This document shows, piece by piece, positions 3,301-41,367 of a stretch of 64,000 nt of DNA; position 1 is the stretch's first letter, and each line of letters opens with the position of its first letter. Below the pieces are notes generated by a model. It searched no databases. It saw nothing but the letters and a program-made list of their open reading frames with translations, and had not been told where the DNA came from. The stretch is from a virus (Duplodnaviria; Caudoviricetes): positions 71 to 64,070 of the IMG/VR virus record IMGVR_UViG_3300042993_000007. The stretch is one strand, 5' to 3'. The position numbers and the translations under genes were made by a program.

Positions 3301-4902
3301 CTAGTGCGAACCTTTTGTACGTCCGCTGCGCGGACCGTTGACCAAAGACAGAACCATGTAACGCACTTCGTCACCAATGTGGTCTTCAGCGTCGGTGTCG
3401 ACGTCATCCTGGTCGACTTCGTCCCTGGGCAATATTGGGAACAAGTCTATACAGTCCTTGCAAGTGTTGAATATGAACATGCCTGGGTATTCACGCGGGC
3501 CACCCTTCTCAGGTCTCAACCCACCTTTGAGCCACTTGCGGATTGCTTCCCAACCGGCCTTCCGGGAACCAGCGCTCTTGTCCGAGCGGTTCCATGTGAT
3601 ACCCTTGTACATCTTGCCCCGTACCTTAACAGGTTTCGCCATGTTAGCGGCAAAACTGTTCCCGTCCTCAACGTCAAAGATGCTGTTGTCCGCTGGCCCA
3701 GGCTGTACGCGACCGTATATGCCCATTACCATTTCGCGCTCAACTATGCCAGCGGCGACGTCGTTAACGAGCATACGCAGGCCCTCGTTAGCCTTGCCGG
3801 TGCAGCCATACCATTCGGCTATGCGAAACAGGTCACCGCGCACGGTGGAGCGCCATGTACCGTCAGCGTTCTCAACGTCAGAGCCGTCGCTAATGGCCCA
3901 CCAGCCAACGGAGAAAGGTCTGGAGCTACCGTAGTCGTAACTCCGTGTGATGCGCCAGTTGTGCGGGATCTTAAACGGCTTGACGATGTGCTGGGTGCTG
4001 TCCCACACGTCGTCGAACATACCACCGGCAACGATGTCCCAGTCGCCGAACAGCCATGCCCGACGCTTGTTCTTGTCGGTCATGATTTCCAGCCCAGCGA
4101 CATAGTCCGGGCTGAGGTACTTGTTCTCTTTGTATGAGCCGAACAGGTGGACCACCGTTTTGGTGACGTCCTCCCGCTGCTGGGTGCGTGGGTTGAATAC
4201 GTTAACCACACGGCGCACAACGCGACCCATCGGCGCGGCGTTGATAAACCGCTTCTTCACCCAGTTGTGGCCAACGCCATGCGGGTTGCAGGTGGCGAAC
4301 ACTTCGAGCGGGATTTCCGGCAGCAGGTAGTGCATCGCGTTCTCGTCGTCTTCATCGACAAGTATGATGCGGCCACTTTCTTTGTAGGCGTCACCGTCAA
4401 TCGTTACCGGGTAGTCCTCAGGACGGAAGCTGCTCCGGTTGCAACTCATCAGCATATCGAACAGGGTGTCGTTCGGGTACTTGGTAAGTTCGTTCCAGCC
4501 AATGAACGGGAACTCCTGGCCGTGATAGCCCCAGTAGTCCGATTCCTTTTTAATGGCCCGGAACATAAGCTCCTCGCCGTCCGGCCACACCCACCTATAG
4601 TCAGACTTGGAGCTTAGGAAACGAGCGTCCCCGGTGGCACTACCCACTTCGCGGATCTCCGGGAACCAGCGCATGGACTTGGACACCAAGTCGTCAAGGT
4701 TCTTGTATTCCCGGTCAAAGATGATGCCGCGCATGAACTTGCCGAAGCCCTGGCCAACGTACCGACGGAACCGCATCAGCTGGGCGTCAGTCTTGCCAGG
4801 GCCACGGGTGCCGTGATAAAGGATTACGTGTGCGGGACAGGACATCGCAAGGGTTTGCGAACCTGGGAGCGGTTGCCATGCCGCTTTCTTAGGTGCGAGC
4901 AT
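3301..4902 (-). CDS. terL: Terminase large subunit
   Basis: GTRGPGKT Walker A, IGWNELT Walker B, ATCNPHGVGH, C-terminal nuclease with SYDYG and EDHIGDEVRY. Confidence 0.93.
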   Translation of the reverse strand: MLAPKKAAWQPLPGSQTLAMSCPAHVILYHGTRGPGKTDAQLMRFRRYVGQGFGKFMRGIIFDREYKNLDDLVSKSMRWFPEIREVGSATGDARFLSSKSDYRWVWPDGEELMFRAIKKESDYWGYHGQEFPFIGWNELTKYPNDTLFDMLMSCNRSSFRPEDYPVTIDGDAYKESGRIILVDEDDENAMHYLLPEIPLEVFATCNPHGVGHNWVKKRFINAAPMGRVVRRVVNVFNPRTQQREDVTKTVVHLFGSYKENKYLSPDYVAGLEIMTDKNKRRAWLFGDWDIVAGGMFDDVWDSTQHIVKPFKIPHNWRITRSYDYGSSRPFSVGWWAISDGSDVENADGTWRSTVRGDLFRIAEWYGCTGKANEGLRMLVNDVAAGIVEREMVMGIYGRVQPGPADNSIFDVEDGNSFAANMAKPVKVRGKMYKGITWNRSDKSAGSRKAGWEAIRKWLKGGLRPEKGGPREYPGMFIFNTCKDCIDLFPILPRDEVDQDDVDTDAEDHIGDEVRYMVLSLVNGPRSGRTKGSH

Positions 4903-5422
4903 CGGCTACCAACTTGTCCTGACTTTCGCTGGCAACCTTTTCCCATTCGTCGATATTGGCAATCCCTGGAACCACCATAACGCCGCCCCGGTTGTTGCCG
5001 GTGCCCTTGTCTTTCTTAGCCACATCCATACCGTGAATGCGGGCCAGTTGGCCCAGGGCAGCCACACGGGACGACGCCGAGCCGCCTGGGCCACGGTAGT
5101 TGGCTTCACGGCGCAGGCCGACAAGGATCTTACGCTTGTCGTCAGCGGCCTCAACCTTGGGGTTGGCAGGTTCTTCGAACTCGGTGTTCTTAATTTTGCG
5201 CTGGACATAGGACTCGCCCATAAAGCGCACGGCGTATTCTTCTGCGAACGCACGCATAAAGCCGCACCGCATTGCAGCGCAGACTGGGTCGTAGTCTTTG
5301 AGGAATTCGCTAACGAAGAAATCACGGAGAGCCTTTTCGCGGCCTTCTGGCTCAGGCTCGATCTCTAGAAAATCACCGTCCCAGAATCTCTTCTGGTCGT
5401 CGCTTGGTGGCTGCTGAGCCAT
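4889..5422 (-). CDS. terS: Terminase small subunit
   Basis: Immediately upstream of terL; FVSEFLKDYDPVCAAMRCGF and SRVAALGQLARIHGMD patterns. Confidence 0.8.
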   Translation of the reverse strand: MAQQPPSDDQKRFWDGDFLEIEPEPEGREKALRDFFVSEFLKDYDPVCAAMRCGFMRAFAEEYAVRFMGESYVQRKIKNTEFEEPANPKVEAADDKRKILVGLRREANYRGPGGSASSRVAALGQLARIHGMDVAKKDKGTGNNRGGVMVVPGIANIDEWEKVASESQDKLVADART

Positions 5423-37181: not shown

Positions 37182-37871
37182 ATGAACGCCCAAGCTCCCG
37201 AACACAAGTCACACCAGCTCGACACCCTCGATGTACACAGCATTTTTCTAACTATCCAAGGTGAAGGCCCGTTTACCGGGTGCCCTGCGGTGTTCGTCCG
37301 GCTAGCCGGGTGCAACCTGCAATGCCCTGGGTGCGACACCGACTACACCAGCAAGCGCGAACGCATGTCGCCCAGTGCCATAGCTGCCAAGGTAATTGAC
37401 CTGAGCGGGCCTGCGGTACTTGTGGTTATCACTGGCGGTGAACCGTTTCGGCAAAACATCGCTGACCTGTGCAAGCGGCTTGTCGGCTTGGCCTACAACG
37501 TGCAAATCGAAACGAACGGTACGCTGCCAATCTCCAGCGCAGTGCCGCTCGACGTCCATGTGGTGTGCAGCCCTAAAACCGGGTCGGTACACAAGTCGAT
37601 CGAGCGCTGGGCAAACCTGTCCTATAAGTACGTGCTGAAGCATGGCGAGGCTAGCCCAGTTGACGGCCTGCCGTTGCTTGCCCTGGGCCACAGCGCTGCA
37701 CCACACCTCGCCAGACCACCGGTAGGCTTTACCGGCAACGTGTACGTCCAGCCAATGGACGAAGGCCATGAAGTGCTCAACTCGTTGAATCTCCTTGCGT
37801 GCATCGAAAGCGTTATGGCTTTCAACTATCGCCTGCAACTGCAAACTCATAAACTTATCGGGGTGGAGTAA
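37182..37871 (+). CDS. queE: 7-carboxy-7-deazaguanine synthase (radical SAM)
   Basis: [37 protein letters not shown]; ATG 37182 with AGGAGG SD. Confidence 0.93.
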
Positions 37872-37872
37872 C

Positions 37873-38673
37873 ATGAAACCGAACACGAAAGCGCTTGTCG
37901 TACTCTCAGGCGGTCAGGATTCGACGACCTGCCTTTTCTGGGCCAAGGCCAACTTCGAGCAAGTGCATGCGGTCACGTTCAACTACGGCCAACGGCACTC
38001 CATTGAAATCCATGCGGCCACCCAGGTGGCGCAAATGGCCAACGTTGCCAGCCACGAGATCATCGACGTCCGTGGCCTGCTGCAATCGACCAGCCCACTG
38101 ACCAGCGATGCGCCGTTGGAGCAGTACGAAAACGCCGAGCAGATGGAAGCCGTTATCGGCAACCGCGTCGAGCTCACATTCGTGCCAATGCGCAACACGC
38201 TGTTCCTAACCATCGCTGCCAACCGGGCCATCGCCCTGGGCTGCCGCCACATCGTCACGGGCATTTGCCAGGAAGACAACGCCAACTATCCTGACTGTAC
38301 CAATATGTTCCGCGGTCGGGTGCAGGACGCTTTTAACGAGTCGCTGTTCGGCACGCGGCATTCGTCCAATGAACTGAAGGTGCTGGCCCCGTTGATCTTC
38401 ATGTCCAAGGCCAAGTCGGTGCATTTCGCCCAAACGTTGCCAGGGTGTATGGATGCCCTGGCGTATAGCCACACCAGCTATGACGGCAAGTACCCGCCAA
38501 CCGACATGAACCATGCCAACGTGCTGCGGGCCAAGGGCTTCGAGGACGCTGGCGTTCCAGACCCACTGGTGGTTCGGGCCTACGTCGAAGGCCGCATGCA
38601 GCTACCGGAAACCGCCAATTACGACACGGTGCGCCACAACCTCGCACATCCACTTTTTAGCATACCGGAGTAA
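37873..38673 (+). CDS. queC: 7-cyano-7-deazaguanine synthase (variant lacking C-terminal Zn cysteines)
   Basis: [31 protein letters not shown]...K. Confidence 0.92.
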
Positions 38674-38675
38674 GG

Positions 38676-39110
38676 ATGGATATCTTCACACACGCAGCCG
38701 TCGGGGCTGCAACCGGGGCAGCCTTCGGGCGCCCGGTGCTGGGTGCCCTGGTGGCAATGCTGCCGGACCTCGGTTACATGCTGCACGCTAACTTCCTGGA
38801 ACGCCTGCGCGTACCGCCCAAGGTGTACGACTTCGGGCACTCGCTGCTGTTCGTGCTGCTGGCCAGCCTGTTGGCCTGGGCGCTGTTCGACGGTGGAACC
38901 GCTGCGGTTGTAGGGCTCGCCCTGCTTTCGCACCTGTGGCTGGACATACCGACGCACGGGCCTACCTGGGGCGTTCGGCTGCTGTACCCACTTCAGTGGC
39001 GGTATGGGTGGGGTGTGGAGTGGGAGTTCTTCAATCGTTCTTGGGCCGAAGGTTTCGTGTGGGGGTTGGCATGGCTAGCAATAGTGTATTCAGCAGAAGC
39101 GTTTTACTGA
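38676..39110 (+). CDS. YdjM-like membrane-associated putative metal-dependent hydrolase
   Basis: FTH, LPD, GHSLLF, SHLWLD, THG...LLYP; hydrophobic helices. Confidence 0.7.
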   Translation: MDIFTHAAVGAATGAAFGRPVLGALVAMLPDLGYMLHANFLERLRVPPKVYDFGHSLLFVLLASLLAWALFDGGTAAVVGLALLSHLWLDIPTHGPTWGVRLLYPLQWRYGWGVEWEFFNRSWAEGFVWGLAWLAIVYSAEAFY

Positions 39111-39373
39111 CGGTTCGGCACTGGCTGCCAATCGTAACGTTCTGCCCTGTTAATAAGCTTCCGGACCTGATATACGTGTCAGTGGAGTTCGGTTCGTTCG
39201 CTGAGCTGTATGCCGTGCGCCGTAAGGTTCGCAAGTTGGTTGGCTGGCGTTGCATGTTCATGGAGGATGTTGCGGTGCAGGTAGCCGACGCATTCCCCGA
39301 AGCAAAATGCGTCACTGTGCGCCTTGCGTTCAACAGGCACGTCGTACAAATAGAGGGTGATAGCAATGTATAA
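39071..39373 (+). CDS. QueF-like (QueF-L type) T-fold protein; start uncertain (39071 ATG or about 39107)
   Basis: FCPVNKLPD (Cys/Asp), VSVEF, FMEDVAV (Glu); lacks the E[SL]K[SA]hK NADPH-binding QueF motif. Confidence 0.65.
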   Translation: MASNSVFSRSVLLTVRHWLPIVTFCPVNKLPDLIYVSVEFGSFAELYAVRRKVRKLVGWRCMFMEDVAVQVADAFPEAKCVTVRLAFNRHVVQIEGDSNV

Positions 39374-39815
39374 GTCCACGAAGACATTTGGGCATGAAGT
39401 CGGCCTCAGTTGTTGCTTTCGTCAGTGGCGGGCTGAAAGCCATTGCCAGCTACTGCACGGGTATGCCATTGCAGTGCGGTTTGAATTCAGTGCAGAGGTT
39501 CTTGACTCTCGTAACTGGGTGGTTGACTTCGGTTCGCTTAAGAGCCTTAAGGGTATCTTGGAGGACAACTTTGACCACACAATGCTTGTGGCTGAAGACG
39601 ACCCCTACAAAGACGAGCTCTGCGGATTGGCGGGGCTTGGCGTTGCCAGGGTTATCTTGCTCCCCAAAGTCGGGTGTGAGGCGTTTGCTGAAATGATTTT
39701 TGAGGTCACGGAACAGTGGTTGGTTGACGCTGGCTACGGTAACCGTGTCTGGCTTGAATCCGTGGAAGTACGTGAGCACGGTGCCAACAGTGCAATCTTT
39801 ACAGGAGCTGAGTAA
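39366..39815 (+). CDS. queD: 6-carboxy-tetrahydropterin synthase
   Basis: [27 protein letters not shown]. Confidence 0.9.
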
Positions 39816-40435
39816 TGAGTAAGCCTGAAGACTGGCAAAGCTGTGACCCTGTGTTGGCACCGTCTGCGGATGCAATGTCCAAGGCGTTTGCAGAGGAGGA
39901 CGTCATTGAGAGCCTGCTGCACATCATTGGTGAAAATCCTGAGCGCGGTGGGCTGATTGAAACTCCTGCTCGTGTGGTTAAAGCCTGGAAATACTGGTGC
40001 GGTGGGTACAACGAGGACATTGAAAGTCTGCTCAAGGTGTTTGAGGACGGCGGGGAAAACTACGATCAGATGGTCACCGTGCGGAACATCCCGTTTTACA
40101 GCCACTGTGAGCATCACCTTGCACCGTTCTTTGGTACGGCTACCGTTGCCTACATCCCGGACGGGCGCATCGTTGGGCTGAGCAAGGTTTCCAGGCTGGT
40201 GGACATCTTCGCTCGCCGCTTGCAAGTGCAGGAGCGACTCACGGCTCAGATCGCTGACGCCATGGAGCTGCACCTGGGCGCGAAGGGTGTAGGGGTGTGC
40301 ATACGGGCGCGGCACCTGTGTATGGAAAGCCGGGGCATTTGCCAGCAAGGCCACCACACCGAAACGACCGCGTTGCGTGGCGTCATTTACAGCGACGCCC
40401 AGGCACGCGCTGAGTTTCTGCGTCGGGCGGAGTAA
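39815..40435 (+). CDS. folE: GTP cyclohydrolase I
   Basis: [38 protein letters not shown]. Confidence 0.96.
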
Positions 40436-40440
40436 CGACG

Positions 40441-41367
40441 ATGGGCCTGCATGTCTACCTCGCTGCGGTGTACACGAACAACTATATGCAGGGTCAGAAG
40501 TTGTATGAGGCTCTGACTGACACAGAAAAGGAAATAACTCACAACTTGCCGCACATCCTGGAGTCGTGGCACTACGTTGGGAAACAGCGTTACGTCGACG
40601 ACATGCGGCGTAACGCGGCTCGCATATTCCTCGACTCCGGAGCGTTCTCTGCGTACACCCTGGGCGTTGAGCTTAGCGTCGCTGAGTACTGCGAGTACAT
40701 CCAGCGCAACATGGATATCATACGGGTTGAAGACGGGTCAGTTATGGCTTCGGTATTGGACGGCATCGGTGACCCGTTGCAGACCTACCGGAACCAGCTG
40801 GAAATGGAACAGCGTGGGGTGCGGCCTTTACCGTGCTTCCACGCCGGGGAGGATGAGCGGTACCTGGAGTGGTATATCCAGAACTACGAATACATCACCC
40901 TCGGTGGCATGGTTGGCACCAGCACGAAGCAGCTCATGGTCTGGCTGGACCGGGTGTGGGGCAAGTACCTCACTGACGGTGCAGGGCGGGCGAAGATCAA
41001 GGTGCATGGCTTCGGTATTACGTCGACGCCAATCATGGAGCGTTACCCCTGGTATAGCTGTGACTCATCCTCCTGGATTCAGTCAACGTCGTTCGGTGTT
41101 ATCGTTACGCCGCAGTTTGGCCCGCTGTCCATTTCAGACAAGTCCCCCAGCCGCCACGACGCTGGGCAACACATCAGCACACTGACACCAATTGAACAGG
41201 AGGTCGTGTTTCAACACCTGGAGTCCATTGGCTTTACCTACGAGCGGCTGTCAACAATTTACCAGTCTCGTGCGGCGTACAACCTGTGGGCGTATGGCAT
41301 GATTAACGCACTGATCAACGCAAGCAAAGACGACGTTTTCCGTAACCGAGTGCAGGAGTTATTCTGA
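40441..41367 (+). CDS. dpdA: TGT-like 7-deazaguanine DNA transglycosylase (DpdA family)
   Basis: FLDSGAFS, VLD, PCFH, LGG, HGFG, SCDSSSW; in operon with preQ0 genes. Confidence 0.8.
   Translation: MGLHVYLAAVYTNNYMQGQKLYEALTDTEKEITHNLPHILESWHYVGKQRYVDDMRRNAARIFLDSGAFSAYTLGVELSVAEYCEYIQRNMDIIRVEDGSVMASVLDGIGDPLQTYRNQLEMEQRGVRPLPCFHAGEDERYLEWYIQNYEYITLGGMVGTSTKQLMVWLDRVWGKYLTDGAGRAKIKVHGFGITSTPIMERYPWYSCDSSSWIQSTSFGVIVTPQFGPLSISDKSPSRHDAGQHISTLTPIEQEVVFQHLESIGFTYERLSTIYQSRAAYNLWAYGMINALINASKDDVFRNRVQELF

Follow-up and report, generated by a model that had tools for sequence, protein, structure and literature searches.

The window, the whole stretch of 64,000 nucleotides that was analyzed here, carries a tightly packed operon on the plus strand of a complete 64-kb viral record, in which dpdA is followed by the gene for the sliding clamp and then by that for the DNA polymerase. 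The genes from queE to dpdA are the following.

37182..37871, plus strand: queE, radical-SAM 7-carboxy-7-deazaguanine synthase (Pfam Radical_SAM / Fer4_12; 44–56% identity to QueE of related loci)
37873..38673, plus strand: queC, lacking both a glutaminase domain and the C-terminal Cys cluster (Pfam QueC, E 8e-50; TIGR00364, 158.9 bits, above the cut-off)
38676..39110, plus strand: YdjM/DUF457-family membrane metallo-hydrolase-like gene, 144 aa (Pfam PF04307, 51.1 bits)
39071..39373, plus strand: QueF-L-like T-fold gene, 100 aa (AF2 model and Foldseek; 40-nt overlap with the YdjM-like gene)
39357..39815, plus strand: queD, 6-carboxytetrahydropterin synthase of the PTPS family (Pfam PTPS, E 2.9e-16)
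39815..40435, plus strand: folE, GTP cyclohydrolase I (Pfam GTP_cyclohydroI, E 1.2e-67)
40441..41367, plus strand: dpdA, DNA guanine transglycosylase (nucleotide and protein identity to known tgt/dpdA)

The dpdA gene of the window has 75–79% nucleotide identity to the annotated tgt/dpdA genes of Nipunavirus and 9g-like phages, and its product has 66% amino acid identity to DpdA (gp30) of phage MMDA13. The YdjM-like ORF starts with an ATG, and a GGAG is found 7 nt upstream (ccGGAGtaaggATG). The stop codon TAA of queC ends at position 38673, which leaves a spacer of 2 nt, and the most likely start of the QueF-L-like gene is the ATG at 39071, which gives an overlap of 40 nt with the 3′ end of the YdjM-like gene. 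Both junctions thus agree with the initial annotation, where the gene was placed 2 nt after the queC stop and overlapping a QueF-like gene. A similar overlap or abutment at the YdjM-like/QueF-L junction occurs in the related loci. The QueF-L frame is open for about 280 nt on the 5′ side of the likely ATG, within the YdjM-like gene (window 38792–39373), and for this reason a mechanical ORF call yields a mis-started protein of 145 aa (38936–39373); the short form, starting at 39071, is supported by the related loci. A scan for promoters and terminators gave no signal above chance within the operon. The YdjM-like gene presents dN/dS values of 0.06 to 0.27 between close relatives, which corresponds to purifying selection, and a spurious ORF at 38676–39110 is ruled out by this ratio and by the conservation of the sequence.

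The assignment of the encoded protein to the YdjM family, made earlier from the sequence, was sustained by the Pfam family YdjM (PF04307), which it matches with an E value of 1.5e-13 and 51.1 bits (cut-off 29); the match spans profile positions 1–166 of 176, and the score in the genome scan was 49.6 bits. The same family is matched by 34 of 35 subfamily members. In PHROGs the protein had only a weak match to ‘hydrolase’, and in NCBIfam it had none. The His/Asp motifs named in the initial annotation (TH, PD, GHS, SHLWLD and THG) are all present, as T5-H6, P30-D31, G54-H55-S56, S85-H86-L-W-L-D90 and T93-H94-G95, and are conserved in the family. Residues D2, H6, D31, H55, H86, D90 and H94 are 99–100% conserved among 85 subfamily sequences, and an alignment with 13 canonical DUF457 members revealed M1, D2, H6, P30, D31, Y51, H55, S56, H86, D90, H94 and P105 as invariant. 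This degree of conservation of the ligand residues favors a working metal site over a mere anchor, and we infer that the protein is a catalytically competent, putative metallo-hydrolase.

A word-indexed search gave 34 relatives of 126–151 aa, and about 58 short-form clusters were obtained at E 1e-17 or better when 1.84 billion representatives were searched exhaustively with a profile. Beyond the short form the scores fall sharply, from at least 78 to at most 67 bits, to canonical DUF457 proteins of 150–195 aa, from which the subfamily is separated as a clade. E. coli YdjM and PF04307 (DUF457; COG1988) have the same invariant residues and the same character of a multi-helix membrane protein, but most full-length members of the present subfamily are shorter (124–159 aa against about 150–195 aa), since the loop that follows the PD motif has lost some 25–35 residues. 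They also present a subfamily-specific motif, E115-W-E-F-F-N120, that is not found in canonical DUF457 proteins. In addition, the subfamily is virus-encoded and located inside que clusters, whereas canonical YdjM genes are LexA-regulated cellular genes. A tblastn search of 50,697 phage records with two canonical DUF457 proteins (P0088 and P0101) gave no match.

The AlphaFold2 model of the protein is an all-helical bundle (mean pLDDT 92.7, pTM 0.87). Its five hydrophobic helices, at residues 2–15, 20–35, 57–70, 73–93 and 121–143, have a mean hydropathy of 1.3–1.7 and are almost free of Lys and Arg, so the hydrophobic helices noticed at first sight are also predicted by the model. The two loops rich in Lys and Arg (residues 36–54, with 3.4 K+R, and 94–120, with 2.7) and every invariant His and Asp residue share one side of the protein, which, by the positive-inside rule alone, would put the putative metal site on the cytoplasmic side, at the membrane surface. 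The protein is therefore predicted to reside in the inner membrane with its metal site on the cytoplasmic face. A holin or lysis gene is ruled out by the location in the replication/modification module; the lysis cassette of MMDA13 is elsewhere.

A hydrophobic protein of five predicted helices could also act as a membrane scaffold or activator, which tethers QueF-L (perhaps also QueC and DpdA) to the inner membrane close to, for instance, replicating or packaging DNA, or activates it allosterically, with no substrate supplied. The overlaps of start and stop codons with the neighbors, which suggest stoichiometric co-expression, and the subfamily-specific surface motif E115-W-E-F-F-N120 are in agreement with such a role. 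On the other hand, a pure scaffold or anchor would have no need for seven His/Asp ligands that are kept at 99–100% in sequences otherwise about 58% divergent, and we consider this explanation unlikely.

Regarding the superfamily, a Foldseek search of the model against the PDB gave nothing at E < 1, and the profile searches of PDB sequences were empty or returned noise. In VIA-align the wide search reached a top Z of 5.2, to unrelated helical proteins, and the alignments to Zn-dependent phospholipase C chains (8cqm_B, Z 4.3 over 118 aa, and 1olp_A, Z 4.1 over 120 aa, of the 144 residues) are a weak structural match, as a Z of about 4 is in the noise range for helical models. These weak alignments agree with a published profile-profile match of YdjM to alpha-toxin, a Zn phospholipase C, at 95%, in which six of the seven catalytic residues are preserved (PMC8557891), with weak matches to PF00882 in 4 of 35 subfamily members, and with ESM Atlas clusters that carry both the YdjM and the PF00882 families. 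The same profile-profile analysis also linked YdjM to Het-C and S1-P1 nuclease (PMC8557891). Putative membership in the phospholipase C / P1-nuclease superfamily is the best reading, mainly on the basis of that publication. The Zn-dependent phospholipase C / alpha-toxin N-domain and the S1-P1 nucleases (PF00882, PF02265) are all-helical, with a His/Asp multi-metal site of the kind predicted for the YdjM-like protein, but these enzymes are soluble and secreted, whereas the YdjM-like protein is predicted to be membrane-embedded.

No conserved Cys was found in the 85 subfamily sequences, and no GATase family matched the protein in Pfam, NCBIfam or PHROGs. There is no resemblance to amidohydrolases or Amt channels, and no Cys of the glutaminase type is present. 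A glutaminase or amidase is ruled out by the absence of a conserved Cys together with the wrong fold, and an Amt-type ammonium channel by the absence of similarity.

The 100-aa T-fold protein encoded downstream had no match in Pfam, NCBIfam or PDB sequences. Its AF2 model (pLDDT 88.6) was searched with Foldseek, and the top ten rows were all the archaeosine synthase QueF-Like of Pyrobaculum (5jyx/5k0p), with E values of 5e-5 to 2e-4 and 21–25% identity. C25-P26...P31-D32 and M64-E65 are invariant in the QueF-L-like proteins, and the NADPH motif E(S/L)K(S/A)hK(L/Y)(Y/F/W), a hallmark of phage QueF reductases (PMC10516641), is replaced by ELYxVRK. The structural match, the retained Cys-Pro...Pro-Asp and Glu residues and the absence of the NADPH motif lead to a genuine phage QueF-L, similar to the archaeal archaeosine synthase, as the best reading of this predicted structure. 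In a 2023 survey no phage QueF sequence aligned with QueF-L (PMC10516641). The QueF-L of a 70-kb viral contig (L013, 6393–6776) is longer than the others by about 35 aa at the C-terminus, for a total of 128 aa.

The neighborhood of the gene was surveyed with profile-guided scans, which yielded 18 loci from IMG/VR and 19 from metagenomes, and with a scan that used divergent members, which added one architecture. After the removal of duplicates, 41 distinct viral loci with a YdjM-like gene were obtained. QueF-L is directly downstream in 40 of them, and in the exception the contig ends 162 nt past the gene; QueC is upstream in 39, and both exceptions are cut by the contig end. The order QueC, YdjM-like, QueF-L is present in these 41 loci wherever the contig allows. 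Alignment gaps between the YdjM-like gene and QueF-L range from –21 to +51 nt, and throughout the loci start and stop codons either overlap or adjoin each other. A reverse search from QueF-L gave 24 IMG/VR loci, eight of them new, and two phage contigs binned in metagenome-assembled genomes (MAGs). A YdjM-like ORF is immediately upstream of QueF-L in every one of these loci, and no QueF-L without it was found among them; a second QueF-L scan gave no further contigs. In the loci surveyed, no member of the YdjM-like subfamily was located away from que clusters. The gene is thus never sporadic in the dpdA/que phages surveyed, and this linkage in both directions bears out its first description as part of the deazaguanine module rather than a stray insertion.

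A scan of 185,579 species genomes for QueF-L gave two phage-sized MAG contigs, L063 and L064, both with the trio, in which the YdjM-like gene upstream of QueF-L was identified with hmmsearch; a 13-residue QueF-L match in an archaeon (L065) was spurious. A search of the same genomes with a subfamily pattern gave no confirmed relative, and this narrow pattern missed L063 and L064. These two contigs (PBAL01000089.1, from a Verrucomicrobiales MAG, and CAZJFO010000004.1, from an uncultured Neisseria MAG) have 56–58 kb and include the phage replication/modification module in full. Each is probably a phage genome that was sorted into the bin of its host, and could thus hint at the hosts.

The YdjM-like/QueF-L pair is kept across about six cluster layouts (L015, L060, L066, L067, L030). 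With Y for the YdjM-like gene and F for QueF-L, these include FolE-QueC-Y-F, QueC-Y-F-FolE-QueD-QueE and DpdA-QueC-Y-F-x-QueD-QueE-FolE, and further layouts of the trio are those of an AT-rich phage and of a gut contig with a second QueC-like gene. The metagenome contigs L030 (human gut) and L031 present, at 881–1652, this second and divergent QueC-like ORF (28% identity) after QueF-L, and about 300 nt between the upstream QueC and the YdjM-like gene.

Three classes of QueC accompany the pair. The class of the window has no Cys cluster, and its C-terminal region reads ...NVLRA where others have SHTCY...CGxCPAC; the canonical class, with the CxxCxxC and its SHTCY...CGxCPAC zinc site, is present in six loci (L007, L012, L025, L029, L042, L066); and a third, Cys-less type is present in two (L015, L067). 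Since the pair is intact with all three classes, QueC has been exchanged while the YdjM-like gene and QueF-L stayed, and the linkage is specifically with QueF-L. Pairwise distances of the YdjM-like protein correlate with those of QueF-L at r 0.82, and with those of QueC at r 0.61. Part of the linkage is shared descent, as a single broad MMDA13-like lineage with conserved synteny accounts for most loci.

Sphingomonas phage vB_StuS_MMDA13 is the only isolated phage with a YdjM-like homolog among the 50,697 phage records. Its gp34 (QHB80467.1) is an ortholog with 47% identity over 97% of the length, annotated as ‘hypothetical protein’, and is likewise located between QueC (gp35) and QueF-L (gp33); the synteny of its operon extends from the exonuclease to the DNA polymerase. 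In the description of the phage, Gp34 is among the proteins of unknown function, outside the six-gene modification cluster (PMC7472734).

Pseudomonas phage NP1 (L089, NC_031058) presents the operon order helicase, queE, Gat-QueC, queD, folE, dpdA, clamp and polymerase. It has neither a YdjM-like gene nor QueF-L, and a single Gat-QueC of 466 aa (3673–5073), annotated as glutamine-fructose-6-phosphate aminotransferase. QueC, the YdjM-like gene and QueF-L of the window fill the slot of this single gene in the syntenic NP1 operon, which is a module swap. The gene sets with Gat-QueC and with QueF-L have been described as alternatives for obtaining G+ from preQ0 (PMC6884629, PMC7472734), and both enzymes are known as archaeosine synthases that substitute for one another (PMC6884629, PMC5485725). 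The glutamine amidotransferase domain of Gat-QueC, found in phages 9g and NP1 and in Crenarchaeota, would thus be the counterpart of the YdjM-like protein by its slot, and presumably by its pathway stage, an analogy of gene position alone; the two have no relation in sequence or fold, and the YdjM-like protein lacks a catalytic Cys and presents nothing that would indicate the use of glutamine. NP1 also carries a homing endonuclease between folE and dpdA.

These comparisons bear on a function independent of DNA modification, in which a phospholipase-like enzyme of the membrane would serve to take over the host, exclude superinfecting phages or remodel the envelope, and its gene would hitch-hike with queF-L. 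YdjM proteins have been proposed as phospholipases or toxins (PMC8557891, PMC11442139), and cellular members of the family are widespread and not linked to que genes. However, co-occurrence with QueF-L is 100% in both directions, the overlapping frames are kept in about six layouts and next to all three QueC classes, no subfamily member was located away from que clusters in the loci surveyed, and sister phages that use Gat-QueC are without the YdjM-like gene. Against this pattern, hitch-hiking seems to us a rather improbable explanation.

The strict linkage in both directions, the overlapping frames, the intact ligands and the swap with Gat-QueC point instead to a functional partnership of the YdjM-like enzyme with QueF-L at the final step of 7-deazaguanine modification, a reading to which we give a little better than an even chance. 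As to the gene itself, the best reading is that of a co-inherited, translationally coupled and obligate partner of QueF-L in this phage lineage. Whether physical or metabolic, the link between the two proteins, like the nature of the substrate, is deduced from these patterns. In the proposed mechanism, DpdA would insert preQ0 into DNA, QueF-L would form a thioimide with the nitrile of dPreQ0, and a nucleophile, which is ammonia in archaea, would convert the thioimide to an amidine (dG+ or a derivative). The YdjM-like enzyme may make or deliver the nitrogen nucleophile at the membrane, or otherwise enable the turnover of QueF-L in the bacterial cell.

The supply of a nitrogen donor is our leading guess for how the YdjM-like enzyme helps QueF-L. 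It is an unproven one, since the superfamily is known for the hydrolysis of phosphodiesters and not for the release of ammonia; we know of no member of the phospholipase C / P1-nuclease superfamily that does so. A helper is also not chemically required, because archaeal QueF-L is active alone in vitro with NH4+ (PMC5485725). That enzyme used only free NH4+ in vitro, and an NH4+-generating partner in vivo was explicitly not excluded (PMC5485725). A phospholipase of the C/D type that acts on lipids of the inner leaflet could, in turn, free a head group with an amine, for example ethanolamine or phosphoethanolamine from phosphatidylethanolamine, and QueF-L would use this amine, and not ammonia, on the dPreQ0 thioimide. 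We hold this variant to be highly improbable; if true, the product would be an N-substituted amidine, a new hypermodified 7-deazaguanine that two enzymes coupled at the membrane produce.

The strict linkage with QueF-L, together with the invariance of all ligand residues in a family of predicted metal-dependent hydrolases, would also suit the hydrolysis of the thioimide itself. A metal-activated water would attack the QueF-L–dPreQ0 thioimide, and the pair would work as a two-component nitrile hydratase that yields dADG (7-amido-7-deazaguanine) or another oxygen-containing derivative, and not dG+. This modification occurs in phage DNA, and its enzyme is unassigned in some phages (PMC6884629). 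Nevertheless, the active site of QueF-L is between the subunits of a soluble T-fold oligomer, which would be hard to reach for a membrane-embedded site, and the superfamily acts on phosphodiesters, so that we regard thioimide hydrolysis as improbable compared with the partnership in which QueF-L is assisted toward an amidine.

Phage 7-deazaguanine modifications block restriction enzymes and Cas9, and the gene sets catalogued in phages comprise FolE, QueD, QueE, QueC and DpdA, plus ArcS, Gat-QueC, QueF or DpdL/M/N. The loci described here contain a conserved added component of a different kind, a predicted membrane-embedded metallo-hydrolase that is tied one-to-one to a phage QueF-L clade. The YdjM family had been taken, in the initial annotation, to be outside the recognized dpd/que genes, and this stands, as our literature search found no paper tying YdjM/DUF457 to deazaguanine pathways. 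Neither of two large phage surveys mentions a membrane or hydrolase component (PMC6884629, PMC10516641). The survey also identifies a clade of phages whose T-fold enzyme resembles archaeal QueF-L, and the YdjM-like protein is a concrete candidate for the question, posed in 2017, of the partner that provides QueF-L with its nitrogen donor in vivo. If true, this would place a member of the large, uncharacterized YdjM/DUF457 family in a pathway for the first time.

Two viral proteins in BFVD presented distant structural similarity to the model of the YdjM-like protein. The first, A7KV06, has 145 aa (E 3.8e-3, TM 0.63, 21% identity). A search for fused forms of at least 266 aa gave none, which is weak evidence. 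The second protein, A0A6J5N497, from an uncultured Caudovirales phage, is annotated as QueC and matched weakly (E 0.13, TM 0.49); its length of 252 aa is near that of the YdjM-like protein plus QueF-L, so that a fusion, or a gene call that reads through, may be present.
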